From positions 62,001 to 126,000 of the forward strand of contig OZ237764.1 of assembly GCA_965178125.1 (NCBI GenBank): 64,000 nt of DNA, in the 5' to 3' direction. The notes beneath the pieces are model-generated. The model searched no databases. It was not told the DNA's origin and was given only the letters and a program-made list of their open reading frames with translations. Below are positions 3,712-42,024 of this stretch, in pieces (position 1 is the stretch's first letter; the number at the start of each line of letters is the position of its first letter). This DNA comes from Bilabrum cf. latius. Lineage: Eukaryota. The translations under genes and the position numbers were made by a program.

Positions 3712-4054
3712 TCTAGGGACCAGGAATCAGGATACAAGTTGGAATTTACGCTATTTGGAATCGTCCGATCCGGACAGTTTAAGTCTATAAGAATCCAAGG
3801 ATCAATGCAACACGAGCTCGATAAGCAATCCCCACGCAGACTGAAGCCAGCGTCTCCTGCTCACAGCACCCTACATCCCTCCGGGTCGTAGGAGCAGTGG
3901 CCAGCACACCCCGCCGCATCCGTCCGCGCGAAGGACATGAGGCAGCGGCAGGCCAGCTCCAGCAAGTAGCACCAGAAATATAAGGCAGCGCGTTGCACCC
4001 AAATACACCAAGGTCCAAGTGTTCTGCCTGTCCTCTATTCCGTCAATAGCTCGA

Positions 4055-5304
4055 TCACGTGGGGCCCAGCGCATCCGCTCCTGTCCCAGTCCCAGCCCCG
4101 CTCCCTAGGATCGACGAGAGACCGAGCACATTCCCGCTCTGGAATGCTGAGAAGGGGTCCTCCCGACCCGACCCCCCTTCATCCCCAGCCCCCGCCCCGC
4201 CGCTGGTTCGTCTCTCCGCGCTCATGCTCTTGGCATGCTACCCTTGTCTGGACCACGCCTGGGAGACAGGTGACATGGCGGCTGGGTCTGCACTGGGCTC
4301 GCCAGTCACCAGGGGCGGCGGGGAAACCATCCCACCTACCCCCAGCCCGGCACCTCCGTCAGCAGGTTGCAGCACAGATGGCCCGTGCGTCGGAGACAGC
4401 GTGAGTCCCCTGGACACGATGCTCCGCTCGAAGGACAGCTCCTGACGGGCTGCAGCCAAGCCCATCGGTAGTAGAGGCTCGTGGCCAGCAAGACCAGCAG
4501 CACCTGGACCTGCCCTCTGTCCAGCAAGGGCCCCACGCACGGCCGAGTCGGCGTAGTCCCTGCTGCTGTGCGCCCTGCTGCGGTCTAGCCCACGAGGGCG
4601 GCCGTCTGGATGGGGCTCCGGGCCGTGCTGATGGAAAGTGCCGGGCACAGATGGGTGCTTGCTTGCTGCTTCCCATCCACTACCACCCCGCGCAGCAGCA
4701 GCTGCAGCTGCAACTGCCGCGGCTGCTGGTAGTCCCCCCGTTGCTTGGGAAAGCCCCTCGGATGCCCCCGAGAAGATCATCTGCTGATGCCCAGCGCCGT
4801 ACTGCTGCGTGTGCCGCTGCAGCTGATGTGGCTGCGCGCCATGTGCAGGTGGAGGACCGAGGGGCATGGGTGCAGTGCCGTGCACCCAGGCAGATGCGGG
4901 CATGCCGACCCCAAGTTGCGCCGCGGGGCCCGTTTGGGAGCCCGCACCACCGTGAGTGTGCGGGTCGAAGGGGCGCGCCGAGGGATCCAGCGAGAGAGCA
5001 CCACCGCTAATGCGCTACTGCTAGCCCCACCGCTCTGCCTCTGCATGCGCGTGCGAGCTACCCCCAAGGTGAGGCAGACCCTCCGAGCTAGGGTGCTTGT
5101 GAGCGGCTCCCAGTCCGCGCCTCAAGTCGCCTTGCATGGTGACGTGGCCGTGCAACTGCATCGCCTGCTGCTGAGTCAAGCTGCCTGGCACGCCAGCGAA
5201 GCCTCGAGACGATCCAACTACTGGCACCGCCATGTACTGCACCCGGACTCCATGCCCACCGCTCTCCGTACTACTGGGCTGCGGTGCGGGGTGGACAGCG
5301 TGCA

Positions 5305-5342
<38 letters not shown>

Positions 5343-5408
5343 GACGCTCGGCTACCGCCTTGCTTACCCTGTCCGGGACTGCGGTGCTGTTGCTGGTGTC
5401 TCTAATTC

Positions 5409-5441
<33 letters not shown>

Positions 5442-8400
5442 GCAGCTTTTCTTGCTCTACGAGATCTCTTCTTCTTACCAGGCGTGTGCTCCTTGCCCTA
5501 GCCGTGTCCCTGTCCCCGTCCACTCTGCCTCTCTCCCCCATGCTTGCCCCCGACAGATCCATGGGCATGGCCCCCGCCGTGCTCTTTCCCGCTCTTGCCC
5601 CCTGGCACTCGGTGCCCACCCAGCCCTCGCAGCACCTTGCCTTGGGCAATGAGCTCCTGGCCCTCCTCTGTCACCAAGTCTCGGCAATACACGTGGGGGT
5701 TGAACTGATGGTCCCTGCCGAGTACGAACGCGTCAGGGTAGTGCTCCAGGAATCGCTTCAGGCCCCCGAATCGCTCCTTGAGCAAGGCAGGCAGGCCGTC
5801 GTGAGGCACCGCCTCCTGCAGATGCTTGCCCACCTCACCCACCGGAAGCGATCCATGCTCTAGCAGCACCTCCCGTGCCAGGCTAATGAGCGCCCCAGAG
5901 GTCACGTCAGCGTCCAGTACCATGCAGCAGTAGTCAAGCTAGTCCTCCACCTCCTGCGGATCACTCGCAAAGAAAGAGCTCCACAGCCCACCCAAAGTGC
6001 CGCGCCTGTAGAGCACGCGCACTGCATACAGAGCTGCCAGCTACAAAGCAGGGGCGCTGGGCCGGGACCCCCCGGGCCCAGGGGGCACATACACGATTCC
6101 GCACTGAATTCGGCCTGTTGGCTGGTTGGCGGGCGGTACTCGCCTGCTGGTTAGTGCAGGTGTCGAGGAGCGGGACAAAGTGGATTGCAGCTCCTTCAGT
6201 AGCAGCCCCCCTGCGGTGACTCGCAACTAGGAGCCCACGCGGTCGAGGGCTGTGCCTTGGGGCGTATGAGAGGCGTCCGACGACTGCCCTGCGGAGATAG
6301 TCTGAATACTAGGAGCTCCTGCACGGGCGCACGAGCAGTGGCCAGTCACACAGCAAGCCATCACCAGCGTGTCATCGCAGCCGCACTGACATCTGCACGC
6401 AGAGTATCCGTGCTCCTTGTAGCACCCGCTACCGTCTAGCCCGCACTTCCCCTTGTCCATGTCTTCGTCAATCTTGCCGCACTTGGAGCACACGCCGTCC
6501 GTGTCCGTGCGGCTCAAGCAGCAGCTCTCTATCTCGCAGCACATGTCGAATCCAAGCACGAGCCTCCTCTACTCCTGCGATTGCACAGCAGCTGAGCACG
6601 CAGACGCAGCCAGGCAGGAGTTGAGCGCAGCCTGGGCCTGCTCCTGACGTATGCCGCACTGCTCGCAACAGGCCTTGCGGGAGGACGCATCGTCTGTGCT
6701 GATCAATGTTTCATCGTCCTCGCTGCCAGAGTCGTGCCCCGCACCACGCCCAGCCGCGCGATGCTTTCCGCTGCCGTGCCGCATGGGAGACACGTCCTCT
6801 CCGGGGAGTGGAGGGGCGCATCCAGGACAGCATGGCCCCGCGTGTGTGGTCTAGCGGTTGTTTGCATCACAGCAGCGCGCCTGGCAGCTCACGCAGGCCC
6901 CGCTCGACATCATCCTGGTGAGGTCGTCAAAGTCGCCCAGGTGCTCTGGTCCTGCCCCCGCTGCCTCCCACATGGGCTCAAAGGCGACACACAGCTCCTT
7001 GGCAGCGACAGCTGCTGCCGACTTCGCCTCCGGTGCCAGCATGGATGTGAGCAGGAGTGCCTTGGCCGCCATGGCAGGCTCGCTGGAGGACTACCGACTG
7101 CGGCTGCGACTCCTTGCCCGCTTCTTGTCGCTCTGACGATCTCCCGCATTTCCGCCTGAAGCGGCCCGCTCCGCATAAGGGTAGGCATCCGCTGCTGTAG
7201 ATGCTTCGCTGGGTGGACTTGGTCCGCTGGGGCTGCTGCTGCCTGCGATCGCCCCGGCATGCGCGTCAATCACCGAAGCAACCTCAGCCGCCGTTGCCCG
7301 CAGCACGATGGGGCAAATGACAGCACAGCTCTGCTAGAAGGCGCGCCTGATCCTCCTCGCATCCCTGGCTCTGATCCCCTCGCATAGGTTACGGCCGGGG
7401 AGCAGCGGGTCCTCCACAACCAGCCGGTGACCAGCAGGCGCTTGCAGCGGGGGCGGCACTCTGACCCCTGTGCGGAACTACTCCGAGCCAGGCGGACCAG
7501 CCCGTTTCTGGCACCGGAGCCGGGTCTGCAGCAGCCAAGGGGCGTCAATCAGAGCGTGCAGCGCCGGCTGCTTGGCTCGCACATGCGCTGGCCAGCCAGC
7601 TGCAGGCGGTGGCCGCTGTCTCCTAGACCTGGAGCTGCGGGAGCCTTTGCCGCTTGGGGATCCCACGCCGCTGTTGCTGCTGGACACCCGGTTCGCCCGC
7701 TGTACGCTGCTGGCACTCTCTGTCCTGGCGTGGGACCGCTGCTCTGGCGAAGCCTCGGCTCCGCCTAGCCTTCCCGCCGAAGCCGCGCTCGCTCCCGACA
7801 GAAGCCGAGGGAGGCCGCCTGACGATGAAGACACGGGCCGCTCGAGTTTATGCGCGGCCCCACCACCCGGCTGCTCCCCAGAGGATTGCATCGTGCTGGC
7901 TAGATGGATCGAGTCCGGCGCTGCCGAAGAGCTGCTCCTAGACTGGTGTTTCCGCTCGAGTGCCGCGGCAGAGGCAGAGTACACCTCGTCGGACACCCGG
8001 AGCCCCTGCGCCGCCACGGAAGTCCCCCCGTAGACGTGATCAATGGGCACCGCACCTTCGATGGAAACCGCCTGCTCGTCCCAGCGCAGTTGCGTGCAGT
8101 CGAACAGCAGCCAGGCCAAGGCCTGCAGCGGTTGCGCGATGACGGTCCTCCGACGGGCAAACACCCACATGAGCAATGCTACGAACACGCGCAGATCTAG
8201 CTGTCGGAACGCATCCCCGGCTCCCCTCGTCAGAGCAGGCGCCATGTGGGCAGCCCACGTGCGCACCAGGATGAGCGACCGCAGGAACAAGTGGGTTCTC
8301 TTGAGCGACTGGTCCACCCGCAGGATGGCCGCCACGGTTGCCAGCGAGGCCAAGTCGTCCGCCACCACGCGCACCCTGACTCCGTCAAGTAAGGTTTCGA

Positions 8401-11400
8401 TGCTGTCGCTGCGCTCATGGTCTCCACGCCGGATGGCAACGTGCCCTACTTGGCACAAAGGCAAAGAACCGGATGCACGAGCCACTGCCGCCGCTGGGGG
8501 GGGCGGTGCAGCTGTTTCCGGCTTGTGCGCGGAGTGCGAGGACGAGCGGCGCGCACGTGTTCCCGTATCGGGTGTGTCTCCAGGAGACTTGTGGGGGTAT
8601 GGGGAGGGCCCCGCGGAGCCATCCCCTCCGCTCGTCGCGCTGTTGAAGGAGGCCCGCAGCACAAAGCGGCCAGTCTGGCCGTGCGCGCCCAGTGCATGAC
8701 CAGCGATCGCCCTGGCGGCAGACGACTGGCCTGCAGCGGTGTTGCCCTTTCCTGGGGGCGTCAACGGACTTCCAGCCTTACCCCCCTATCCTCCACGTCC
8801 ATCCCCGCCCATACCCGTGGCTTGCGCCACCGAGTCAGCGAGGTCTGTGAAGCTGCCCTGCTCCCGGCTGGTAAAAGAGCCCACCGCTGAGCTCACAAAG
8901 CTGCCACCGCGCGTGTGCTGCCTCGGCCTAGCCCCTTCGTCGCCGTCAGGCCCCGCTGTGGACCGCCGCACCCTGCGCTCGACACCGGCTCCATCCACCG
9001 ATTTACCATGCGCCATGGATCCCCGTCCATTGCGCTGCGCTGCAGAGCCTTCGATAGCTCTGGCCGCTTCTGCCGCAGCCAGCCGCACCGCCGCATCCTC
9101 TTCATCTTGTTGAGGACCCCCATCATCCTCAACTACAGCGTCCTTGCCGTCGCGCGCAGAGCCTGCCGGGTGTCTTCCCTGCATCCACAAAGTTCGCTGC
9201 TCCCTGTCCATCGAGTCCACCGCTGCGATGGCCTCCTCCACAGCGGCTCCGAGCGTGTGCTGCGAGGCCAGTTTGGTCCTCTCCGTGCTCAGCACCACTG
9301 AGCCAGTAGACTCCCAGCCTGGACCCCCGATACGACCCCTTCGTTCTGAGGACGTCACGGAGCGCACAGAGCTGTGCTCAGACACGGCTGCTGCCACGAT
9401 GGCTCGCTGCATGTCGGCCGGTTGCATGTGCATCAGCGAGCTCGGCCCCGCCGAGCCCGAGCCTGACTGTCCGGGGGATCCGCTGCGGCTCGAACCAAGT
9501 AGCCCAGTCCCAGACGGCACCCCCGGGAGCGCCAGCATCTGATTCAAGCTGCGGCCACGGTCTGCCGGCGATAGCTTGGACCTGGCTCGGACCATTGGTT
9601 GGGCCGTCTCCCCTGATTTTTTCCCGCTGGTGGCGGGCGACGAGTGCAGGAGTGCGTCGCTGCTTGCACTCCTCAAGTCAGGCTGCATGCGCACGGGAGC
9701 TGGTCGAGAGCTCGGGGAGGTCTGGTCTCCTGTCCCCTGCCTTGGCTTTCGCTGTGACTTGGGGTCAACGAGTGCACCCGAGTTGGACCTGCTGGGACGG
9801 CTGCCAGACTCGCTGCTGCGATCCGGATCCAGGTGAGACTCGCCGGCCTCAGAGCCTGCCCGGCCTCGATCTTGCCCCGTCGGCCTGCTGCCTCCTTCCT
9901 GCGGCCACCCGCCGATTCGGGCAGCCGACACCTCCACCTCAGGTAGCGCCAGCAGTGCCTCTGACGCACCCAGCACCCATTTGACTTCGCGGTCGGGCGA
10001 CATGAACAGACTCAAAAGCACGCGATCGCCCGCCATCCCCGCCCCGGCAGGCACGGGCCCAAGCGGGAACACCCGCCCGCCGGCCACCTTGCTGGTCAGC
10101 GCCGCCAACATCGCGGACACCCGCCGCATGAGCTCTCGCTCCGCGTCCCCCGGCACAAGCGACAGCAAGAGGGCGTCAGTCACGTCATCGACTGCTGCAC
10201 GCGAGGGAACAACCTGCTGGGCCCGTGCCTGCAGTCCCTTGGGCAAAGTGGCGCCCTCCTGCAGGCCCTCGGCGGCTTGCACCCGCGCGCACGCTCGGAG
10301 GGTGGCGGACAGTGCGGCCATGTTGCTCTCAAAGTGCTGCGGGGCCAGCAGGGGGGCCTGTTGCGCTGCCTATTCCGCAGAGACTTGCAGAGCACTAATC
10401 AGCGGTGCACCCCCGGCCGGGGCATGAGGGTCGGCGACCTAAAGCTCGTGCTTTCCCACGCTGACGTGGCCCATGCCACGGGGGGGCAGGGTGCCCGGCA
10501 GTCCCCGGGGCAGGGATGTGATCGAGTCTCGTTGCCCGCCCTGCTAGCCCAATGGTTGAGCGCCAGACGCGCCTGCCGAGTGGCCGGTCCCCGCCTCGCT
10601 GACCACACTGTCCACCTAGCTCGCCGCCGCGCTGGCCCTGGATCCCCTCCTCCACTTGGCCTCGCCACCTGCAGACAGAAGACTGCCGCTGGCCCCCGGA
10701 GAGCCCATTTGCACTTGCTCTGGTCGGGGCTGCGAGGGCGAGCTGTATTCCCTGGATCTGGACAATGAAGATGCAGATGCAAGCGCTGCTACACCCGCGG
10801 GGTCCTCGCCGGAGGAGACCCATTGCTTGGGGGGCGGGAGCTGGAGGCTGGAGGGCCTGCTTGAGGCCTCCCCGCCGTACACGCCTTCGCCTGCATCGCC
10901 ACTTCCAAATGTGCGACCCTGCGGCACGGCCAGCGGGGCGGCACCCGGTCCTACTCTAGATAAATCCGTCTGCGCCCTAAGCGGAGGCGATTTCTAAGCA
11001 GGCTCAGGCAGTGGCGGCCTCACTCCAAACCTAGACATGATGCCGGCTAGCTGCTCGTTGCCACCAGGCACCTGCAGAAGGGCCTATTGCAGTGCAGATA
11101 TCATGGCAGCCTGATCGGCGCTCCCATTCGTTGCCTGGGCGAGTGGGGCGCCGAAATCATCGCTGGATTCGGCCGCCCGCGTCGCGCTCGAATGCAGCAT
11201 CGGGACATGTCCAGCAGGTCCAGATGAGCTAGAAGCGGGCGCGGTGCTAGCCGGTAGCTATCCTCCATTGTTGTGCTGGTGCTCGCGTTTCGCTGTCTGG
11301 GCCGCGGCTCGGGGTGGGCTGGAGAAATCCTGCGATTGGAGAGGCGAGAATCGAGTCACGGGTTCAGAGTGCAAAGGCTTCGCGATACAAACAGAACGAA

Positions 11401-12783
11401 GGTGTTGAGTGGCGCGCAGCCACGGCAATGGGATGGATGGACCTCACTAGCAGTCGATCCAGCAGCGGAAGCTGCGAGCTCGCCGTTCTCGTGCCACTGT
11501 CCAGGAACCGCCGGAGTGCTCGCGTGGCTCTCGCAATGGGGATACGCGCGGCAGCCCGCAGGAATGCTTCCAGCCTGCCCTTTCTCTCGTCGATCAGGTC
11601 TCGGCTCAGGCTGCTGAACACGGTTTTGGGCGGCAGTTCCAGTGCCCGCATGGCCTCCAGCTGGGCCTGCCGCTCCACATGGTGCGGGGAGGCGACCCTA
11701 CTGTCGGACACAGAGTCAGCGGCAGCGGCAGAGGCAGACGATGCCCTGCTGCTAGAGCCGCGGGGGGCGCCTCCTTTCCTTTCGGCACCTGTGCCTGCCC
11801 GTGCCCCTGCGCTTGCACTCCCCTGGCTCCCCGCACTCCCCTGGCTCGAAGCACGCGTCGGACCTCCGAACGGGGCACCCCCCACGGACACCAGCCCCGC
11901 GGGAGAAGCCGCCGTGGGTGCCAGCGCGGGGGAAGCCGCTGCAGCGCGACCCACACCCTGATCCACCTCGCTGGCAACCCTGTCGATGTCATCTGCCGCG
12001 GCCCTGAGATCCGAGTGCAGAGAGACGAACTGCTTGAAGCGGCGGAGCACGCGCCACTCGAGGGGGCGGCGGCGGCTCTGGGGCCGGTGGGGGTCCTTGG
12101 ACCTGCGCTGGCTGGGATCTAGGTCCTGTCGCTCGCCCACGCGTACTCGGACTTCGTACTGCGTGAAGGCACCGCCCGCGTCCTGGCTCGTCCTCGTCCC
12201 AACCACCGAGACGTCGAGCGCAGGGTCTGCGAAGGCCGTGTCGGCTTTACCACGCGGATCTCGTTCTGCGATCGTAGGGGACAGACGAAACTTAGGCAGC
12301 AATCATGGTGGGCCAGCAAAGGCACTGTTAGTTGAGATGATTTGGGTACACAAAAATCAGCACTTGAGCGCTACCGTGGCAAGGCTCACTTGATTCGGTA
12401 GACGACATCGCATCTGCCGCTTCGCTATAGCTTGGAGCAGTCACAGGCTGGCCTACCAACACTGTTTCGGGGCCAAATCCCTCTGAGCCTCTTTTGGGAG
12501 ACCTAGGAGCGGCCGGCGAATCCTGTTCTGGATGACCAGATCTCGACCGAGCGCTATCTCTTCGTCTTCCAGGCCCCACATATTCTTGATCCTTCGACAA
12601 TCTACGATTTGTACCATATACATCTGGCGTTGGCACGTGATCGGTCCCACTCTGTGATGAGACAGCGCGCCACGACCTTTGCATCATGCCGTGCTACTGA
12701 CGCTGCGCTGCCCCACCTCTCCGGAAGCTACTTCCTGGCGCATCGCCCGACAGCTTGGGGGATATCCCTTGCCTACGATCCAT
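4055..12783 (-). CDS. ~2,800-aa protein: PX domain, degenerate Pol-beta-type nucleotidyltransferase (PAP/OAS1 substrate-binding-like), Cys-rich insert, OST-HTH/LOTUS-like domain, poly-Q and PAM2-like motif
   Basis: ATG at 12783. Introns 12266-12389 (phase 1) and 11330-11447 (phase 0) preserve frame. One frame then runs, broken only by TAG, to TGA at 4055-4057. PX motifs: TQYEVRV, WRVLRRFKQFVSLHSDL, LPPK, IDERKGRLEAFL. NTase-family motifs: HLFLRSLILVRTW, QPLQAL..LRWDEQAVSIEGAVPI, VEDPLLPGRNL. wHTH: GSLPVGEVGKHL..LKERFGGLKRFLEHYPDAF. Additional small introns cannot be excluded. Confidence 0.75.
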
Positions 12784-12933
12784 AAGGACTGCACCCAGAG
12801 ATTCAAACTATCTGGGTTGTCCACCAACAGAGTGGGAATAATTCGAAGCAAATCAAAATGTAGCGAGCCAATTCGCTGGCAGAAATATCATATCCGCCCA
12901 ATCCATCGAGCTTGCAGAAAGACTCTGGATAGC

Positions 12934-14398
12934 ATGGCTGCAGTTGGAGGCTCAGGTGCATCAAGTGCTGCTGTTCCAAGCAGCCCATCGGGGTCAAGCA
13001 GAAAAGCCGCGGAGGGCGGAGTGCACGCCGTCACCCCCTACTCGGACGCACCTTTCGAGATCGACTACGAAAAGACACCTTCCAATGGAAAAGTAGCCCT
13101 GCTTACGGTAAGTGCTTACAGTAAGTGCTAACATGTATCATCTCTGTACTAGCGTTTATAAACGCTTTGCTGCTCAAATCTATGCGGCTCAATCTGTCGG
13201 CACCCGGTCGGTTTCGCGAGCTCATGTGCGTTGGATTTTACGCACGCGACGTGATCTGAACCAAAGAGGATTCACTCAAGTGCAATTAAAATGACTGTTA
13301 CGTTAAGTTGTAAGATTCGGTGCGATCGCCTTTTGGTTTTCTTTGCAGGGCGTTACTGGCCAGGACGGCTCGTACCTCGCTGAGTTCCTTCTATCAAAGG
13401 GCTACGAGGTGCATGGAATCATCAGGCGCTCCTCTAGCTTCAACACGGCTCGTATCGAGCATTTGTACCGTGACCAGCACGACAGGACCCGTTTCTTCAT
13501 GCACTACGGGGATTTGACGGACAGCAGCAACTTGACCTCCATCGTCGCCAAGACAAAGCCCCACGAGATCTACAACCTCGCTGCTCAGAGTCACGTGAAA
13601 GTCAGTTTCGAGATGAGCGAGTACACCGCGGACGTAGACGGTCTCGGGACGCTCCGCCTGCTGAACGCCATCCGCACGGCCGGGCTGGAGAAGCACTGTA
13701 AGTTCTACTAGGCCTCGACAAGTGAGCTGTACGGCAAGGTGCGGGAGACGCCCCAGAAAGAGACCACCCCCTTCTATCCCCGCTCCCCTTACGCGGTGGC
13801 CAAGCAGTACGCCTTCTGGATGTGCATCAATTACAGGGAGGCCTACGGCATGTTCGCAGCGAACGGGATCTTGTTCAACCACGAGGGCCCACGGAGGGGG
13901 CCCTCCTTCGTGACACGCAAGATCACCAGGGCCGTGGCGCGCATCCACAGGGGCCTGCAGAAGAACATCTACCTGGGCAACCTGGACGCCAAGCGCGACT
14001 GGGGCAGCGCCCGCGACTACGTGCAGGGCATGTGGCTGATCCTGCAGCAGGACGAGCCCGAGGACTTCGTGCTGGCCACTGGCGAGACGCACACGGTCAG
14101 AGAGTTTGTGGATCTGGCCTTCAAGGAGGTGGGCATCTCGGTGTCCTGGCGGGGCGAGGGAGTGGAGGAGCAGGGCTTCGCGACGATGAAGAACGAGGCC
14201 GGGGAGGACGAGGAGCGGGTGCTTGTCAAGGTGGACCCCAAGTACTTTAGGCCCACAGAGGTGGAGTTGCTGCTGGGAGATGCCAGCAAGGCCAAGGAGA
14301 AGCTCGGGTGGGAGCCCGAGACAACCTTCAGGGCGCTCGTGGGGGAGATGGTGCGGTCGGACCTTGCCCTCGTGGACAAGGGGGATCTGCGGTCGTGA
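12934..14398 (+). CDS. GMD: GDP-mannose 4,6-dehydratase
   Basis: Exon 1 is 12934-13107, intron 13108-13348 (GTAAGT..TTTGCAG), exon 2 13349-14398 ending TGA. Splicing gives [18 protein letters not shown]. Other motifs: [32 protein letters not shown]. One in-frame TAG (13709-13711) sits at the conserved Q of [11 protein letters not shown]. Confidence 0.97.
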
Positions 14399-14742
14399 GG
14401 AGTGAGAGAGAAAGAGTGAGGATGGGGTTCGGGATGAGAGTGGGACAACAGTGACTCTCGAGCACTGCGCGCTGCATCCTGTCTAGCTGCAATACGCTCG
14501 GCAGAGCTGCCGTGCAGGTTCGGCAGCAGCGACGCGGCTCCTCACTGGGCATGCACAGAGCCAAAACAAGGAGAATTTTGCAGGGGCCGGAGTCTGCGCT
14601 GCCTTGGAACCGAAAGGAGACTCCAATCCATCGGATCTGTCTTTGTTTCAGGCTCCAGATCACGCGGCCGCAATCTCAGCCACGCTCACAGTCATGGCAC
14701 TGCTGGATGGCACTCGTCCGAAACGCATCCGAACCTCTCGGC

Positions 14743-16599
14743 TCAGCCCTGCACGCCTGGAGGGTATTCACCGTCAGCTGATCGCACCGCGCCCCTCGCA
14801 TTCATGCATCCCACATCGTCATGGTTGCCATTAACCGCAGAAGCATCGTTTGTTGCCGCCTTGCTAGCAGCCTTCTCTTCTTCCTGAGCCCGGCTGGACT
14901 CCTCCCCGTTCACGTACCACACGCTCACCGCGGCTCTCTGGCTCGAGCACGGCATCACCTCGTGTGGGCACCGCCGGTCGCTCCAGAACAGGACCAGCCG
15001 GCCTCCGGCAGGCGCAATATCGATGGCATCCACCGGAGCCCCCTCTCCCTTGACCAGATGGCTCCATTCAGATGCCTGGCCTCCGTCCCCCGAGCATGCG
15101 CTCTTCCCCTGGCTGATCGAACCAAGGTCGAGCACCCGAGGCAGAGCACACGGGCCCACGCACCTCTCAGCAAGCGCCAGCATGGTGGGCCCGTCGCCAT
15201 CAGGGAACAACGCAGGGAGAGGGCGGGCCCACGAGGGCGTGCCAACTCGTCTGCTCGGGGGGTCCGAGTCAGAGGCTGGACCCGCGTCCCCTGCTACCAC
15301 CGGCATGGGCCTGTGCAGCCTGAGGTGACCCCCCTGCGACTCATCGTAGATGCCTGTGGCTGCCACCGGCGGAAAAGACAATGTCCGGTCCCGTGCGAGC
15401 CCGGGATCGTCCACGGGATTCAGGTACAGCAAGGCGGTGATGACCCGGCCGTTGCCGTGGGGGTTGTCCACGTGACGAGTGTACCTCGAACCGGCACCTG
15501 GGTACACCGCTCCCATGGCGCTGCGACGGTACAGGGTGGTACGCTTGAGTTCATCGCACTGCAGCGCCATGCAACCAATTACCAGTTCGTCAATGGAGGC
15601 AGCGCATCGCTGCAGTGCAGTGCAGGCATGGGTCCTCCCGTCGGCGGATGGGGGCAGCCATGCCATCCAGTCCCCTCGCACCTTAACTCGCTCGTGGGAT
15701 GCAGCCAGCCCGGCGCGTCCCCCTCCGACTCTCCCTGGGTGCAGCAAGAACGGACCCTCCACCATCTCGTCCAGCTCATCCGCGCCGCTCGACCCAGCAT
15801 CCTCACCCTCGCCCTCCCCCTCGCCCTCGATCTGCCCCCCTCCTGCCCCTGCCTAGATCTACTCGCTCGACCTGCGTGCCACCGTGACACCCCGCGCGAG
15901 TGCCTCCAAGAGCTCACCCCGGGCCTCCAGCACACTCGTTGCGGAGCACCACCCATCTATCACCGCCACGCGATGCGTCTCGAGCGAATTCACTGCAGCC
16001 GCAGCCAATGCTCTCAATGCCATGTCGCCCAGCGACGAATCAGCGGCAGGTGCGGAGCGCCCCGCACCAGCGACATCCTATGTGACAGCATCCTACCGCG
16101 ATAGGTCTTCTATGGCTCGCGCGGCGGCCAATGCCTGTCTGGATGGCAGCAGAGCGTCGGGCAGTCGGAGTCCTGGCACACGCGGGGACGGCGTGTGACC
16201 CCCCGCCATGATCGCCGACAGGGTATCCCGAGCTGCATGGGCCATGCTCGAATGCTTGAGCGTTTCGCTGCTCACAACAGTACCTGACACCATGCCTATC
16301 GCGACGTCGATTGAGGCAGCCGCCTTGCGCTTCATGCTTTGAAGCTTCTCTAGCTATTGTGCCATTCTGTCTCGCCGTCTAGTCATTTCTTCTACGTTGG
16401 ACCTCATCTTTTCAACCGTGCTCTTCAGCGAATCCCTTGTCCTTTGAAGGGATGCAAACGCTGCATCGATTCTCTTCTGCTCGGCGGCCCGTTTGCGCTC
16501 CCTTTCCAACTTAGCCCTACGCTCCTTCTCTCGGTCAGCAGCGCGCGCTGCCTTTACTCTAGCTTCTATGATTGCCATGATGTCCCTTCCCGAATCCAT
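14743..16599 (-). CDS. EGLN/PHD-like 2OG-Fe(II) prolyl 4-hydroxylase with N-terminal coiled coil
   Basis: ORFs 16354-16599, 16093-16335 and 14743-15765 share a frame joined by TAGs and end at TGA 14743. Motifs: RGDWMAWL, YPGAGSRYTRHVDNPHGNGRVITALLYLN, GRLVLFWSDRRCPHEVMP, RAAVSVWY (HxD...H...R). Confidence 0.85.
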
Positions 16600-16771
16600 G
16601 GCAATGTAACAGGTTAACCCGACATCATATCACTGATTCCACGAATCAGCCTTTTTGTGACATGCTGATCACAGAGCTGATTCTTGGTTGAGCTGCGGCA
16701 CTTCAAGCAGAGCTTCCGGGTTCCATTCGTAAATCCCGTCTCTCTGCAACCAGCAGACCAGCACCACCGCA

Positions 16772-17341
16772 ATGGACGACGATAAGAAACGAAAGAGGTC
16801 CGATCCATTTAACGACACGCTCTGCTCGACAGTTGCGGCCTCGGTCAATGTGCTCGTGCATCTCCTTTCTCATTGATTTCGCAGGCAGGAATCAAACCGA
16901 CGTGCAGCCAAGGAATCACGGTAGCGGAGGAAAGCTAGAACGGAGGAACTGTAGCGCGCTGTAGTATTTGTCACCCGAGAGAACGAGGAGCTACATGAAG
17001 AGAATACCATCCTGGCGGAGACTCTGAAGGCTGCAGCACCGGACTCAGCGGCTCTTGTTGCTCACTTGAAACAAGAGAACGCATCATTGAAAGTCGCATT
17101 GTTTGAGTGCGTGCAAACACTTGCGAGAATAAGCTCGGTGGCACCGGATCTGGTTGCCTCTATCCCTGGGGTGCTGCCTGCCAGAGCAGCTGCAGGTGGG
17201 GCAGCAGCGGAATCTGGGCCAAGCACTGGGTACGCCGGGGGCAGTGCAGGCCCGAGCGCTGCACCGTCGAGCGCATATTCATCCTCTCAGGCCGCAGGAG
17301 CCCAAAGCGGCTCTGCCCCGATGGAGTCAGGAGGCACTTGA
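16772..17341 (+). CDS. bZIP transcription factor
   Basis: Exon 1 is 16772-16797, intron 16798-16884, exon 2 runs to TGA 17339-17341. Spliced protein: MDDDKKRKRQESNRRAAKESR[TAG]RRKARTEEL[TAG]RAVVFVTRENEELHEENTILAE, a basic N-x7-R region followed by a zipper. Confidence 0.85.
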
Positions 17342-17763
17342 CGCCACCGCGCACTGCCCTGTCTCACTGCACCTGCTGCCCACCTCACTGGCCGGCTGTT
17401 GGCAGCTTTCACGAGTGGATGGGGAGCGCGCCGGGGAGACGCACCTGATGACGCTATCTGAAGTACTACCCCGCATATCTTAGTGCGCCGGTGGCCACTG
17501 ATTCGGATAGTGTCCGTCCTGGCGGGCACTGTGTTCGGATGCGGCAGATGCCTGCAACCACTGTGAGCGGCGCTGATTCGCAATTGATCTAGCTCGCAGC
17601 CACGCTTGATCCCATTACTAGATCTACGGTCTGGCAGCTGTTGCCACGTGGTCGTGGCATGTGACGACTCTGCTGGGGGAGGCAATCCTATGGATGTGGT
17701 GGAGTGGTCAGTTGTGGCAGTCCTGATGCCAGGTCTTGCTGCCTGCAAGTGCATCGCACTGTA

Positions 17764-19890
17764 ATGCACCCGATCCCGTTCTCGGAGGTGCTTACGCGTC
17801 ATCTCGGAGGCGCAAGTTCCAGGCAGGTTTGGATGTCTTCACTAGGGGTCTCGAGTGCGACCGGAGTTCGGCATCGCTCGCGTCGACAGTGCTGCGCAGA
17901 TCTGCGCATCGGGACTCTGAATGTTCATGTGTTTAATGAAGCCAGTGGATCAGAGATCGCTAGATTCATCCGAGAAAAATCCGATGCTCCACTTGATGTG
18001 CTGTGTCTAAATGAGGCGAGTTTAAAGCCGGAGAAGTCCAAGGCGGGCAGCTCGCGTTGCGTGATTGCTCTTGCGAAGGCTCTCGGCTTGCCCTTTCTCT
18101 CGCTAGGAAACCTAGGGTGGATCGGGAATGCTGTTTTGTCGCGATTCCCAATAATTAGGCATCAATTGTGCACTATTGAGGACAAGAGGGTCCACAGCCG
18201 CCAACTGGTAGTGGCAACCCTTTTAGTTCCGGTCGATTCTTCACGCCGGAGGAGCGAATGCGCCGGATTTATCCCATTCACGGTCGCATCGACTCACCTA
18301 GAGCATACAGATGAACATGCCCGGCTGAGGCAAGTCGCAGGATTGCACCGTCATCTGCAGTAGTAGCTATCTTTGGAGCCTCAGTTGCCACCGACTTCTC
18401 GCGACGATTGGAAAGGCGCGAAGCCATCGAAGCCATCGCGCGGGTTTGTAGGCGATAAACACCACGGGAAGAGTCATAGGAAGGAAGTTATTGAAATGCT
18501 CCGCAGCACCGGCCTGATAACCCCCCGCAGGCTCCGTGCAGCGAGATGCTGGCGGGATGGGGACTCGGATGCCACCCCTGCTACTGGCACTGGCACTGCC
18601 AGTGGCACCGGCAGGGCTAAGACTGCCAGCGCGGAGGCTGCTTCCAGTAAAGGTGGCAGTGACGGGGGCTTGCACGTCCGCTCCAAACACTCATCGGAAT
18701 CGTCCACGCGCGGTGAAGCGGGTGAAGCATCTCGCGGCAACCTGAAGTGCAAAAAGGGCAAGGGCGAGTATACCACTGGCAGGCATGTCGATGCCACTGG
18801 CAGGGCTTTGTCCTCCGGTGGCTCGCCCATCACCTGCGTGGAGCCCATGTGCAGGCTGCCAACGATGGAGGCAGATACGGTATAGAGCCTTCTCGCCGAC
18901 TTGGGGGGCTGTGTGAAAGCCCGCCGGAGTGCCAAGAGTAGGTCTGGGTCGAGGTCTGGGTCTGGCATGAGTGCGCGCGCTGCCATCCATGCCGGCGGTG
19001 GGCTGGCGCCACCTGCCAGTGGATCCAGCGCCTCCCTGCCCTAGCCACCTGCCAGTGGATCCAGCGCCTCCCTGCCCTACTTGCTGTGCGGGGACTTCAA
19101 CTCCCTACGGTACCAGGACTTGAGCGATGCTGGGCTTAAGGTCATTCAGGACAGGCGGGATAAGTGGGGCTGGCAGGGGCCTCGCTTCGATGTGACCGGT
19201 ATCCTGCTGGGTGAGCACACTGGTGTCGGTGGAGGTGTCGGTGCTGGAGCATCGGATGTACATGCACCACGAAGCGGCAAGGCCATGGTCGTCGCTGCAC
19301 CACGCTCGGGACCAGGCGAAGTATCCGCTGCCTTGAGCTCTGGGGAGGCCGGTGTCCCCAGTGGCAGTGAGCCCGGTGGTAGCGCAGGTGCCGGCTGGGG
19401 ATACGTGGATGCCTGCACTGTGGCGCACCCTCAGCCGCATAGAGCCAAGTGGGACGTCGTTGTTCACAAGAAGAGGAAGGGGTCAAAGGGCCGCAGCCCG
19501 GGCCACGCGACGTCGAGAGGAGGGGCTGCGGGAAGGCCCGGCCCGGCGACGGCCGCGGCAGGCAGCGGCAGACCCAAGCCGGACAGAAAGTGCAGTGGCC
19601 TGGCCAGCCGAACGGCCGTCCTGGATTGGACCAGCCGGCTGCACACCCGCATAGACTACCTGCTGCTCCATCCAGGGCACGCATCTCACGAGGGCGGGCG
19701 CCAGAGGTGCTGCAGGTGGCCCGACGGCTCCTCGCTGGCAGCATCATTCGTGAAGGGGTCCTACCGCGTGCTGCAAACGTGCGGCCCAATGAGCGACCAC
19801 AACCTGGTGCAAGCCCAGGTCCACTTGGAGTGGCAAGGGCCTGCTTGCATGGGGTCGGGGGCCACCGTGGCTGCCCCGCCTGGGTCGTGA
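17764..19890 (+). CDS. Endonuclease/exonuclease/phosphatase (EEP) family protein with long low-complexity inserts
   Basis: Same-frame pieces are joined by TAGTAG (18361-18366), TAG 18883 and TAG 19042, ending at TGA 19888. All EEP motifs appear in order: LRIGTLNVH, DVLCLNE, GNAVLSRFPI, VASTHL, LLCGDFNS, RIDYLLL, SDHNLV. Start is uncertain (17764 or 17833). Confidence 0.85.
19008..19079 (+). repeat. 36-bp tandem duplication inside the EEP CDS (PPASGSSASLP x2)
   Basis: GCCACCTGCCAGTGGATCCAGCGCCTCCCTGCCCTA occurs twice, head to tail. Confidence 0.9.
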
Positions 19891-20117
19891 CCAACGCCGA
19901 AAATATTGAGCAGAGTGCTCGGCTTGGATCATTAATCCAATGAATTTCATGATCAGAGTAGCATCACGACCGATCTTGGTGTGGTCGCTTCTTGTTGCAT
20001 GCCGTGCTGGCCGGAGCAAAGCTATATAAGCACTATAAATAATACCGAACTAAGTACCCGTACCACCTGGGATTAAGGTCATGCCCTCAGCCCATGCATG
20101 ATAATGACGCCGACCAA

Positions 20118-23100
20118 TCACTCGCACACGGCTTGGGCAAGCAAAGCAGCGGCGCCCCTCAGCGATGCGAGCGGATCGGCACTCTCGCCGCGATCTCCGG
20201 GCTGCATCGGCGTCATGATGGAAGCTTGGAGACTGCGGCCGTCCACTCCTACCGCGTCCATGAGCGCCCCTGCCACCTGCATCTTCTACCCGATGGACCG
20301 GGTGGCGCTTGCCGCTGCCTCCTCTACTGTCTTGGAAGCTCCTGCCGCCGCTGGGTCAGCCTCATCTGCCGCCGATGAGCTGCCCACCAGCAGCGGAGCC
20401 AGACACACGACAAGCGCAGCGCGCCCCATGCGGTTGCGGGCCTTGCGCGCCTCTATGGATGCCAGTAGCCGCAGCACGACCTGCAGGCCAGCGTGCGTGA
20501 ACGGCCTGCTCTCCCGCAGGTCATCCAGTGCCGCGAGGGCCGCTAGGACCCTCATCTCCGCTGCCCGCCGCTGCACCACGGGCTTCCTCCGCACGGCCGC
20601 CAGCAGTACATGCACACCTGCCCTGTCTGGCTGTCCCTCGCGCCCGCTGGGCGGCTGGGCCAGTGCAGGCCCCTCCTCTCGCGAGCCCGCTGCCTAGTCC
20701 ACTGCCCCAGAGGACGAGTCGCCCTCGCTGCCAGGCGCACCTCCTGCTGCTCGCCTTGCCCGGGGCCCGGGTCGGGACCGGGTCCCTGGTCCACTCGCCG
20801 CCTGGGCGTGGGCTTCAGCACTCTTGCCCGCGTCCCCCGCCCCTGGCCTCCTCTCCTGCCGCCGCGGGCCGCCCCCGCCCATGCTCCCGCTGCTCCTGCC
20901 CCTGCGCTATGGACCGCCCGTTTCTCTCCCGATGGACCGCGAGCTCGCATCCCTCGCCAAGAAGCCCACGCCTCCACCGCGGGGGCTCCCCTCTGTAACC
21001 CCTGCGCCGCTCCCTATGGACCGCGCACTGCGAGACCATGGCCCTGACTTGGACCCAGACCCAGGCCCAGATCCAGACCCCGGCGAGGAGCCCCCGCTGG
21101 CTTCTTCCGTGCCGAGGCGGGGAGGCCTGCGCCGCTTGGAAGTACCCGGCGAGCCATCTAGGACTGCAGATTCGGGTCCTTCCCCTGCATCTCTCTCTCC
21201 AGAATGTCGGTCGTCTCGCTGGGGCATGAGGGCCCTGACAGGGGCTCGGCTGGGAGCGATTGATGCCGCTTCTGCTGCGGCATGCACCACTCCGGCGCTC
21301 GCCCACACCTCCCCACTGTCCTTCTCACCCTCACTGCCCGCTCTGGCCTCTTGCGACATCCCACCTGCGCCGGTGCGTTCGACAGATGCGGTCGATGTCC
21401 TGGCAGGCGCGCTGTCTATCGGTGCACCCACCCGCCGCTCGATAGAGGCCCCCACATCGGCGACACCCTGGCAGCATGCGAGGGCCTGGCTCAGCTGCGC
21501 AGATAGAGCCCCGGACACGATCGGCTCGGGCAGCAGCCGCATGTACTCTGCGAGCACACCGGCCACCACGTGCGCCTCGACTGGCAGAATGTCCGCCTTT
21601 GGAATCGAAATGTCGCGTCCCTTACTTGACTGCTGCGTCCAGGTTTGCAGCCCTGCCCGCAGCAGGTTCATGTACCTATCGCACCCACTGGATTCACCTC
21701 CGGATGCCCCCTCGCGCTCCACCGGGGAGGTCCCACCCACGAGCTCCTCGCCCCCTCGAGCGCACGCTCTGCAGAGCACCTGCATCACCGCATCCTTCCT
21801 GGGAGGCACGCGCATGAGGCCCTCTGCGTCCAGCCCAAGCCACCGGCACGAAACCTCATCCCCTGCCCGAGCCTGACCACCTGGACCGCTGGGCCCCTCG
21901 CCTCCAGCACCGGCCCTTCTTCGCATGGGCAGCAGCAGCGCGCCAGCACACGCAGCAATAATCACTGGTGGACTCACCTCAACCACCCCCGGGCCCTGGA
22001 CGCGCCCAGCCACCTCGGGGTCCAGCCCAAGCAGGCTAGGGGCCTCTGCCCGCTTGCTGCCCATCGCCAGCCGGCGCCAACTCACCTCCCGGCGAACCCC
22101 TGCAGCAGCAGCAGCAGCAGCAGCAGCAGCCCGCCTGGCAGTGGCGGGAGATGGGCCATCTTCCTGACCAGTACCCTCCCTGCCATCGGCACCGCTGCCC
22201 CCTGCCTCGATACCATCGCCCTCTCCCACCCCCTCGCGCTCGTCGGCAGTCGCCCTGCCCTCCAACGGGCCCCCTGTCCCTCTACCTCCATCCCCATGCC
22301 GCCCCAGCAGCTCAATGACGCGACTCTGTCTGCTCTCAGCAGCGGCCCATGCGGACTGCGACCGCAGCAGCACCAGCGTGCCCCTGCCTCGCTCGATCAG
22401 CTGCCCCACTCGAGGCAGGGCCGGCCTCAGGCTCAGCACGGGGTCGCCCTCTCGCGCCAGCGCGGGACTCCACAGCAACGCCTGGAATCGACTCGACTCT
22501 GGGGCCGCGCTCAATGGACCGTGCTCTGAAGAGCGCGTCTATAGCAAGGGGAGGCCGCAGCTGAGCACCTCAAGGGGCAGCGAGGGCTCAAGGGTGCGTG
22601 CTGCAGCAGCAGCTGCAGCAGCACGCCCAGAGGCGCCCTGCGGCAGAGACCCGGTCGAGTTGGCGCTGAGCATGGAAGACCCGCTGGAATCACGGGGGGC
22701 TCGGACCTATCCCTCTGCATCTGGATGCATGCCTGGATTGGGATGCTGAGACCAGGATGGAGCGGGGGCCAGCAGGGGCCCCGCAAACACGCCAAGCGGC
22801 GCAGGGGCCTGGCCTACCCCAGCCGCGGGTGCACCTTTCGCGCTCGAGCCTATCAGTGCGCCGTCCGACCCATCCCCGCTGCGATTTGGCATGGAGGGGC
22901 TGGATTCGGCGATCAGGGCCGCTTCGAGGCTGGCAGCCGCAGCGTCGGACCGCTCGCCTGCCAGTGCGAGAACGTCGCGAGGCAGCACGAGGCCTTCCGG
23001 CGTCGCGACCGCTGCTGCTTCGTCGCACGAGTGAAGGTACTGCAATTTCTTCCAAAACTTAGATGATATAAATGGGCTGACAACCGCGAATATCGCCCTC

Positions 23101-23531
23101 AGCGTGAACGTAGGATGAAGGATCCACAGTCGTTTCATGTTCTTTTTGTACCGCCGCGGAAGCCATCCGTACGCGCTTTGAAGCCATGAATAATTGCCCG
23201 TTCCCAAGAAATCAGATCCATTATGGCAAATTAACATTGCGAATGGCCCCCTAGTAACGGCGTCCATGGCCTGAACCATAGCAAGGGCTGCGACATCCAG
23301 GGATGACGAGCTGCTTGGCGATTCGGCGGCTTGCAGCATTCCAGGGCTCAAGATAACGATAGGCAGCCCCTCTGTAGATGTACCACCAATATACACAAAG
23401 AAAGTCTCCAGCAATCGCCTTGCCGCATCACACTGTGACCCAGCCGCTCCAACTTGTAGATTGTCTTTGTATATACCGCCATCTAGCCACTTGTTGGATG
23501 TAGTCTCGAGCGCGCTGATGGAGCCGGACAT
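20118..23531 (-). CDS. BCH (CRAL-TRIO-like) + RhoGAP protein, ARHGAP1/Cdc42GAP-like architecture
   Basis: One frame runs from ATG 23531 to TGA 20118-20120, broken only by TAGs. BCH: WLQSAYGWLPRRYKKNMKRLWILHPTF..SPFISSKFWKKL. RhoGAP: GLDAEGLMRVP (arginine finger), HVVAGVLAEYMRLLPEPIV, NRMGRAALVVCLAPLL. Confidence 0.85.
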
Positions 23532-23702
23532 GTGCAGAGTAACAAATGCCGCTTCAAATCATAATGCTGTAATCTACCGTCTGAGAATGGTTGCAATGGA
23601 CAAAAAGAATCCCAGCTGCAACCATGGAGTCTGGTTTATCCAACAGCACCTTACAGTATCCCTGCACGAATCCAACATGGTAAGACATGGCAAATTTACG
23701 TG

Positions 23703-24850
23703 ATGCTAAGACGGACTGCGGCCACAGCAAGACACAATGTCGTAAAATAGCTACTAGTTACCCCCCTGGGTTGTTAGAGGCGTTGGGCAGGTGAGGCGAT
23801 ACCAATTTCTTGCCACCAATCCAACATCAGCAATCAATCACGGGCTGTAACTTTCGCAATCTCTACATATTCTGCACAGGACACTCCAAGTGGCACAATA
23901 TACGCGTGAGAATCCTGGTGGTGCTGCACCAAGCACAGTTTGATTAGGAACTAGGGTGATGTAGCAATCCATGCCACACGGTCATCTCTACCACGCAGCA
24001 CAAAAAAGCGCACAACGACAGGAGAAAGTCTGCCGTTCTTGAGAAAGCATCCAAGGGCATTACAATTGCAGTTAAGGTAGGAGGATCACCAGATCCCGAT
24101 GATAACGTGGATCTGCACGCCGCAATATAGCGAGCCAAGTCAGTTAATCTACCGAAAGACAAAATTGAAGCAGCAATTAAGCGAGGCGCGGACCATGGAG
24201 CCAGTGGAGGCTCGGACTTGATGGAGTTAGTGTACGAAGGAGTGGCCAAGCACGGTGTGCAGGCTGTAGTGGAGGTCCTGACCGACAGCAAGACCCGAGC
24301 AGCGCAGCAGGTTCGCCTGGTCTTCAAGGAGGCCGGCGGGGAGCTGCAGCCCCCTGGGGCGCTGGATTACAACTTCAAGCACGTGGGCGTGGTGGACGTG
24401 CGCTGCGACAGGGCCCAGCACGAGGAAGCCCTGCTGGAGCTTGCGCTCGGGGCGGGCTGCGAGGATGTGGAGTGGCCTGACGAGGGCACGCTTGCGGCGG
24501 AGGGGGCGGCGGAGGCGGTGGTGGACCACCACTTGCACCACGAGCTGGCGTCGCATGCCGTGGAACCGGAGGAGGGGGATGGGCACGCGGAGTCGGTCTA
24601 GCACTCGATCGGCAAGGACGTGGCACGAGCCATCTGCAGCCGGGCACAGCTGCATGCCGCTGCGAGGGCGTTCCGGAAGGAAGGGGCGCTGCCTGCTGGG
24701 TGCGAGGTGCTGCGTGCTGAGGCGACGAGGCTGCCTCTTACAACGGTTGATTTGGAAGGGGAGCAGGAGTAGGAGGACCTAGCTTCGTTCTTGCATGCGC
24801 TAGAGGACTTGGAGGACGTCTAGCACGTGTACCACAACGTGAGGGGGTGA
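23703..24850 (+). CDS. TACO1: YebC/TACO1-family protein with a probable mitochondrial transit peptide
   Basis: Exons 23703-23790, 23880-23905 and 23999-24850 (TGA). Spliced protein: MLRRTAATAR..WAGHSKWHNIRHKKAHND..PDPDDN..NLPKDKIEAAIKR..YEG..LEDLEDV[TAG]HVYHNV. Confidence 0.9.
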
Positions 24851-41850: not shown

Positions 41851-42024
41851 AATTCGGCCACAGGTGCGGTTTATGTGAGATTGAAGAGAACTGGCAAGTG
41901 CGCTCGTCATCACGGGCCGGGGATGGATTTTCCGTTGCGGATCGCTCTGGCGAGTCTTAGAACAGTACTCGTCCATTCACTGGTGCTCATGGCACCTGAG
42001 CAATAAGTAGTATATTTTGAGGAT

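Follow-up and report, generated by a model that had tools for sequence, protein, structure and literature searches.

An in-frame UAG at an invariant glutamine of GDP-mannose 4,6-dehydratase points to a UAG = Gln nuclear code in a GC-rich, UGA-terminating eukaryote

Translation of both UAA and UAG as glutamine (UAR = Gln, where R is a purine; NCBI table 6) is found in many ciliates, in Hexamita, in ulvophycean green algae, in Streblomastix and in Amoeboaphelidium. Few nuclear codes give UAG and UAA different meanings, and a further case would be an independent data point on the uncoupling of the two codons. Such split meanings are recorded for Iotanema, an uncultured rhizarian, Scotinosphaera, Protocruzia and a few other ciliates in the available excerpts of one survey (McGowan et al. 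2024, PMC11687900). The combination of UAG = Gln with a UAA that is not reassigned (NCBI table 15) is described, in those excerpts and in the accessible parts of the report on Iotanema (Panek et al. 2017, PMC5304391), for Iotanema spirale, Protocruzia tuzeti, Hartmannula sinica and Trochilia petrani. The same parts of the Iotanema report propose as decoder a tRNA-Gln with the anticodon CUA, derived from tRNA-Gln(CUG) (PMC5304391). Here we describe a 64,000-nucleotide stretch of DNA (contig OZ237764.1, positions 62,001 to 126,000, of assembly GCA_965178125.1, listed under Bilabrum cf. latius), referred to below as the window and numbered from its first letter. It contains a gene for GDP-mannose 4,6-dehydratase (GMD) with an in-frame TAG at 13709-13711 on the + strand. 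We consider that this codon, and the others like it in the window, are best accounted for by a nuclear code of the table 15 type in which UAG would specify glutamine and UGA is the only terminator seen, and we give this reading a probability of about 0.78.

The window resembles Iotanema spirale, a fornicate, in that UAG alone appears to have changed to glutamine, UAA has no sense meaning and the organism is not a ciliate. In the available text on Iotanema, however, UAA is the predominant terminator (PMC5304391), whereas all 18 supported frames of the window (supported meaning a Pfam match or an RNA contig) end at TGA and none at TAA. Also unlike Iotanema, the window is about 64% GC and encodes oxygen-dependent enzymes, for example a 2OG-Fe(II) oxygenase. 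For the ciliates H. sinica, T. petrani and P. tuzeti the same assignment was made from the same kind of evidence, internal UAGs at conserved glutamine columns, as far as the excerpts of McGowan et al. (2024; PMC11687900) extend; there, 93.5-100% of the C-terminal alignments of the phyllopharyngeans H. sinica and T. petrani end at UAA, in contrast to UGA here. The codes of the table 6 type share with the window a change from stop to glutamine and UGA as terminator, but differ from it in that UAA is not sense here (none found, against about 21 expected). Some likeness can also be seen to Amoebophrya sp. ex Karlodinium veneficum, in which about half of the genes contain in-frame stops that are kept in the transcripts and for which suppressor tRNAs for UAA and UAG are reported in the accessible portion of its description (PMC12005148). 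In that organism, again according to this portion, all three stops occur in frame, their meaning is contextual and the genome is far more AT-rich than those of other Amoebophrya (PMC12005148), whereas the window has only TAG in frame and is GC-rich. The present case sets itself apart by its high GC content, by termination at UGA and by a UAA that is apparently unused, and it would represent a natural example of translation with only one terminator observed.

The GMD gene begins with an exon of 58 codons (12934-13107, + strand), with its ATG at 12934 and ending in ...KVALLT, the frame of which was traced back from the splice donor; a contig of the sequencing run X6, described below, starts at 12917. 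The N-terminus encoded by this exon is like those of the homologues P0005 and P0006 (...GKVALLTGITGQDG). A phase 0 intron of 241 bases with GT..AG ends follows (13108-13348, +), and the second exon (13349-14398, +), identified from its translation and its Pfam and Protein Data Bank (PDB) matches, comprises 349 codons and a TGA stop at 14396-14398. When the TAG is read through, exon 2 matches the Pfam family PF16363 (GDP_Man_Dehyd) with an E-value of 1e-153 over profile positions 4-332 of 332, scoring 512 bits against a curated cut-off of 27. Its matches to GMDs in the PDB range from 5e-150, for the E. coli enzyme (1db3), to 2e-145, and include those from Naegleria fowleri (5uzh) and human (GMDS, 6gpj).

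At 13700-13735 (+) the sequence reads AAG TTC TAC TAG GCC TCG ACA AGT GAG CTG TAC GGC, that is, K F Y, a stop, and A S T S E L Y G. The TAG is aligned with glutamine in all three of the printed PDB alignments (E. coli, N. fowleri and human). When the 120 best matches from a search of 5.8 billion proteins are aligned with MAFFT, its column is glutamine in every row (120/120), as invariant as the flanking Y, A, S, T, S, E, L and G columns. Aligning GMD orthologues had been proposed by an earlier reading of the letters alone (the original prediction), which placed the TAG at the conserved glutamine of this enzyme; the alignment agrees with that placement. Downstream of the TAG lie the Thr-Ser-Glu of the STSE motif (13718-13726, +), whose columns are invariant in the 120 homologues and whose Thr and Glu we take to be catalytic, and a YAVAK sequence (13790-13804, +) aligned to the PDB enzymes, which is the Tyr-x-x-x-Lys motif of short-chain dehydrogenases and presumably has the role usual for it there. 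A protein ending at the TAG would therefore be without both. The motifs GxTGQDGSY, YQASTSE and YxxxK (as SPYAVAK) are all present in the frame, and the C-terminus, ...DKGDLRS, meets its TGA at the same residue as in relatives. The match to the E. coli, human and Naegleria enzymes is thus full-length with all motifs kept, and the gene differs from them only by the codon of the invariant glutamine and by the 58-residue N-terminal exon.

Contigs of four public runs (X1, X5, X6 and X7), which come from four studies, were placed on positions 4000-23999 of the window. Contigs of all four cover 13709 with TAG and no other letters. Those of X1, which may be the source sample, and of X5 run through the GMD intron, as DNA would. 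An X6 contig of 1413 bases (depth 128, the only one with this joint) joins 13106 to 13348, skipping the 241 bases of the GT..AG intron, and reaches 14570 with no differing letter. An X7 contig of 1302 bases covers 13348-14632, again with no differing letter, and has a loose 5' end that matches the final bases of exon 1. In all, five GT..AG (or CT..AC) joints were seen, only in X6 and X7, which indicates that both runs hold spliced RNA; the RNA label itself is the tool's guess, and the contigs, in which UAG is the majority form, may hide rare variants. Of the 38 TAGs between 4000 and 23999, at least 24 are spanned without a break by contigs of the RNA runs, among the pieces listed. We note that the depth of the GMD contigs is higher in X5-X7, which was not taken to reflect expression, since the GMD gene had served to find these runs. 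The joints other than that of GMD define four more introns of 87-124 bases, each GT..AG on its own strand, at 11328-11447, 12265-12390, 16795-16883 and 23787-23877. The minus-strand pair among them flanks a PX-domain frame; of the others, one precedes a bZIP exon and one the TACO1 frame.

Lone in-frame stops are most often assembly or sequencing errors, sites of U-to-C editing, marks of a pseudogene or cases of gene-specific readthrough, and for that reason we kept in view the explanation that the TAG at 13709 is not an ordinary translated codon. No result speaks in its favour. The TAG recurs in four of four runs from four studies and survives unchanged in the spliced contigs of two; the gene is otherwise intact, with every conserved motif present and the catalytic motifs all located after the TAG; and a device confined to one gene is ruled out by the 113 in-frame TAGs of the 18 supported frames. 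We regard this explanation as barely credible. The GMD gene is confirmed as a normal, intact, spliced and transcribed gene with a UAG at the position of an invariant glutamine. The original prediction had argued against a pseudogene, and its view is upheld by the ATG, the GT..AG intron and the TGA on either side of the site, by the retained motifs and by the spliced transcripts; a CAG at 13709 in transcript or reads, which on its own terms would have refuted it, does not appear in the X6 or X7 contigs.

The window as a whole is consistent with a sense meaning for UAG. When TGA is taken as the sole stop, frames of 2462, 2656 and 2872 codons are obtained, and those of 2462, 2445 and 2758 codons would be lost if TAG were counted as a stop. 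The 14 long frames bounded by TGA contain 108 TAGs and three TAAs. In the 18 supported frames there are 113 in-frame TAGs among 18,187 codons, which is near the off-frame rate (219 in two frames), while TGA occurs 0 times in frame and 574 times off frame. The frames with Pfam matches include bystin (3.9e-114), a sulfatase, GT41, TACO1/YebC, the 2OG oxygenase, bZIP, PX and CRAL-TRIO/RhoGAP, as well as ankyrin/RGS, LRR, a casein-kinase-like domain, an endonuclease/phosphatase domain and an IQ motif. Read as glutamine, TAG would make up about 13% of the glutamine codons in the window. TAGs lie upstream of the bystin domain, of the OGT-like catalytic lobes and of the catalytic motifs of GMD, and one frame contains 21 of them; by simple arithmetic, readthrough of 90% at each of these would leave only about a tenth of the product at full length. 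As a separate observation, four TAGs alternate with GGN codons at 52994-53014 (+), between the two catalytic lobes of the GT41/OGT-like frame, where a glutamine reading would give QGQGQGQ if the stretch is coding and not a small intron.

Evidence on the identity of the amino acid comes from conserved columns in other genes as well as from GMD. A bystin/Enp1 frame (40114-41793, - strand; Pfam Bystin), which ends at TGA, has TAGs at 41605-41607, 41485-41487 and 40804-40806, and the column of 41485 is glutamine in 95 of 100 non-gap homologues. In the TACO1/YebC frame (23960-24847; Pfam PF01709, 3e-34) a TAG at 24821-24823 (+) falls at a 'DDVQ' motif and is aligned with glutamine in three of five printed PDB homologues, the other two having V and D. 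In frame 57388-62094 a TAG lies in a conserved membrane block (58105-58107, -), where the distant homologue P0245 (45% identical) has glutamine: LGFVQIGLLIRVGIMWFVFAQGAP, compared with LRFV-TAG-LGLLLRVGIMWFVFAQGAP in the window. The latter comparison stems from a search of a 1200-residue piece against a representative library, which gave 15 matches, three of them usable; the TAGs at query positions 962 and 1035 are in low-complexity sequence that could not be aligned and were not counted. For the kinase-like, sulfatase and GT41 frames, the PDB alignments put the TAGs in variable or unaligned parts (K, N or none) and are uninformative on identity. Finally, a glutamine codon directly follows TAG in 11 of 110 cases, compared with a background frequency of 4.3%, and a poly-Q run contains one TAG.

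A close relative, 95-99% identical in its proteins, provides a comparison at shorter distance. It is known from called protein fragments alone, and its codons are deduced from these and not read from DNA. At each of the five TAG sites of the window that its proteins span (13709, 8786, 41605, 41485 and 40804) it has glutamine, a count conditioned on the fact that a site with TAG in the relative too could not be spanned by a called protein. P0002 (99% identical) reads Q at position 13709 of GMD. The TAG at 8786-8788 (-), in the 2462-codon frame 4058-11443, corresponds to Q in P0122 (95% identical), which reads GDGRGGQGGKAGS where the window has GDGRGG-TAG-GGKAGS. P0125, the bystin (97% identical), has Q at all three of its TAG sites, including 40804, at which distant bystins have D. 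P0002 starts at a TTG within the end of the intron, like the window's own open reading frame of 122 codons, which suggests a gene caller of the bacterial type. Two of the three fragments that the relative has of frame 4058-11443 end just before a CAG of the window (chance 0.006). Similarly, in a relative that is 78% identical, the called protein P0246 ends ...VPARLQSAR where the window has ...VPARVQSAR-TAG (60859-60861, -). Ends at such codons imply a caller that stops at TAG, and hence that the glutamines in the relative's proteins come from ordinary glutamine codons. On this comparison of called proteins with the window, TAG and CAG are shown to replace each other between the window and the 95-99% identical relative. 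A scan of JGI metagenomes with the relative's GMD gave, among the best 80 of 580 confirmed stretches, a top match of 69% identity, hence no close relative and none of the DNA behind the relative's proteins.

The public proteins P0002, P0122-P0125 and P0246, from relatives at 78-99% identity, are fragments cut off at positions for which this lineage has TAG. Gene callers that apply the standard code will break most of its long genes at TAG, and the public protein sets of the relative are already fragmented in this way.

Several points weigh against glutamine as the general meaning of UAG. Just three or four of the TAGs stand in strongly conserved columns. The column of the bystin TAG at 40804 is variable, with D in 91, E in 12 and Q in 4 of 120 homologues, and at other variable columns the residue is K (TTBK2, 26158), N (55863) or A (P0246, 61009). 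The CAG or CAA codons of the relative are deduced from the behaviour of a gene caller that treats TAG as a stop, and the count of five out of five is subject to the conditioning described above. One frame, 42007-50280 (+; ankyrin/RGS, 2758 codons), has TAGs at 50251, 50272 and 50275, within the last 11 codons before its TGA. ARAGORN found no tRNA gene in the 64-kb window.

The first of these points bear on the explanation that UAG encodes some other amino acid (Glu, Lys, Leu, Ser, Tyr, Trp or pyrrolysine) and that the GMD site tolerates the change. Codes in which UAG means Glu, Leu or Ser are known in other eukaryotes, as stated in the excerpts of PMC11687900, and the D or E of 103 of the 120 bystins at 40804, together with the K, N and A elsewhere, could be taken in its favour. 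Residues such as K, N and A are nevertheless to be expected at sites without constraint, and the conserved columns all have Q (120/120, 95/100, 3/5 and 1/1 for GMD, bystin, TACO1 and the membrane block, respectively). The close relative has Q at five of five sites and never E, K, L, S, W or Y; its fragments end at CAG codons of the window; and the excess of glutamine codons after TAG and the TAG within poly-Q point the same way. We judge a different amino acid to be highly improbable. The residue named by the original prediction, glutamine, is thus borne out by the GMD column, by the relative's P0002 and by the further sites in the window. Its description of 13709 as the cleanest single site for fixing the amino acid holds only in part: the site does support glutamine, but it does not by itself fix the code, for which the evidence from the whole window is needed.

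A second question is whether UAA shares the new meaning. The two codons have the same meaning, glutamine, under table 6, which is the commonest variant code in the literature as represented in the excerpts of PMC11687900, and in a genome of about 64% GC the rarity of UAA might simply follow from base composition. That no supported frame ends at TAA can also be read in favour of table 6, under which TAA would not be a stop, since the use of TAA as a stop is not demonstrated. Base composition can, however, be allowed for. In the window CAA makes up 19% of CAR codons, GAA 21% of GAR and AAA 19% of AAR, so that if TAA also meant glutamine about 21 TAAs would be expected among the 111 TAR codons of the TGA-bounded frames, from which the counts for this test were taken; the probability of three or fewer is 2e-7. 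Those three do not lie in supported coding sequence, where in-frame TAA is absent (0, against 108-113 TAGs): one belongs to the GMD intron and the others to two 5' leaders with a low GC content at third codon positions. Only TAG is reassigned, and UAA is not a sense codon. Table 6 is in our view a very unlikely description of this genome.

A code of the table 15 type also requires that UAG no longer terminates. Stops whose meaning depends on context are found in Condylostoma, in karyorelict ciliates and, for UAA, in Blastocrithidia. By analogy UAG could be ambiguous in the window, specifying glutamine inside genes and still terminating near the 3' ends of mRNAs. Because TAG was read through in delimiting the frames, any end at TAG would have escaped notice, and the density of terminal TAGs in frame 42007-50280 is far above the average of 0.6%; the true end of this frame could be at 50251. 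The three terminal TAGs may be a hint of occasional termination at UAG, or may belong to a Q-rich tail. Two proteins with C-termini fixed by homology argue against ambiguity: GMD, as described above, and bystin (...KGMAPMT) both terminate at TGA, level with the last residue of their relatives. Elsewhere, at least 50 codons separate the last TAG of a frame from its TGA, and one case among 18 is weak ground for a general rule. Ambiguity of UAG is quite unlikely in our estimation, and the preferred interpretation remains that UAG would be a glutamine codon. With respect to UAA, the absence of TAA ends from the 18 supported frames has a probability of 0.15 if TAA accounts for 10% of stops and of 0.018 if it accounts for 20%, which fits TAA as a rare stop and sits less well with a commoner one.

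In the mechanism that we envisage for UAG = Gln, the window comes from the nuclear genome of a GC-rich eukaryote with GT-AG introns, the translation system of which would read UAG as a glutamine sense codon, so that the UAG at 13709 would be translated as the invariant glutamine of GMD. Decoding would be carried out by a dedicated tRNA-Gln with the anticodon CUA, which pairs with UAG and not with UAA and is one mutation away from tRNA-Gln(CUG), and eRF1 would have lost efficient release at UAG; both steps follow the model in the available parts of the Iotanema report (PMC5304391). No Rfam family matched the window at gathering thresholds. A more specific version of this scheme is an independent and hitherto unreported UAG-to-Gln reassignment in a GC-rich, non-ciliate protist lineage that terminates at UGA alone and leaves UAA unassigned and avoided, the release factor being blind to UAR and the only new glutamine tRNA being that with CUA. 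We put this forward tentatively, and think it unlikely in its full form. If it were true, the UAA-unassigned state would lie between the standard code and table 6, a state not described for a nuclear genome.

The affinities of the organism were considered using the same proteins. We assume that long genes, GT-AG introns of 87-241 bases and 64% GC are unlike a ciliate macronuclear genome. In a bystin tree of 29 rows (the window and 28 sequences chosen from the 120 matches, namely the 97% relative, eight high-scoring environmental sequences and 19 named ones, with no fornicate included) the window lies on a long branch with ENA/Logan environmental sequences only, apart from fungi, animals and ochrophytes. 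An affinity with Amoeboaphelidium was rejected, as the tree sets the window away from fungi and animals. Amoebophrya sp. ex K. veneficum was set aside for its reported AT-richness (PMC12005148), and Iotanema and the ciliates for their use of UAA as the main terminator (PMC5304391, PMC11687900). Beyond the close relative, the next-best bystin is 58% identical, and the best named matches of GMD, at 70-72%, are from stramenopiles and haptophytes. A literature search, in which subscription journals were not covered, found no GC-rich non-ciliate eukaryote with UAG = Gln and termination at UGA. The source of the window looks like a GC-rich, non-ciliate, UGA-terminating lineage that is a new bearer of a known type of code, that in which UAG is glutamine.

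Some further features of the window may be mentioned. At 18007-18673 the contig depth jumps in all four runs (in X1 to 223, compared with about 14 elsewhere), with joints that connect 18603 with 4677 and with the region around 22600; the probable cause is a short repeated CAG-rich element common to several genes. At the end of the window two long frames overlap on opposite strands, at 62817-63998 (+) and 62804-64000 (-). The former has a start that resembles a PH domain by eye, no Pfam match and no TAG; the latter is the sole long frame that ends at TAA and is probably spurious. Coding tandem repeats are present on the + strand at 29529-29766, where a 24-base unit is repeated 9.9 times and encodes AKAKQEAD repeats, and at 49669-49885, where a 42-base unit is repeated 4.6 times and encodes repeats of the QQAGYDQQAGYGYN type.

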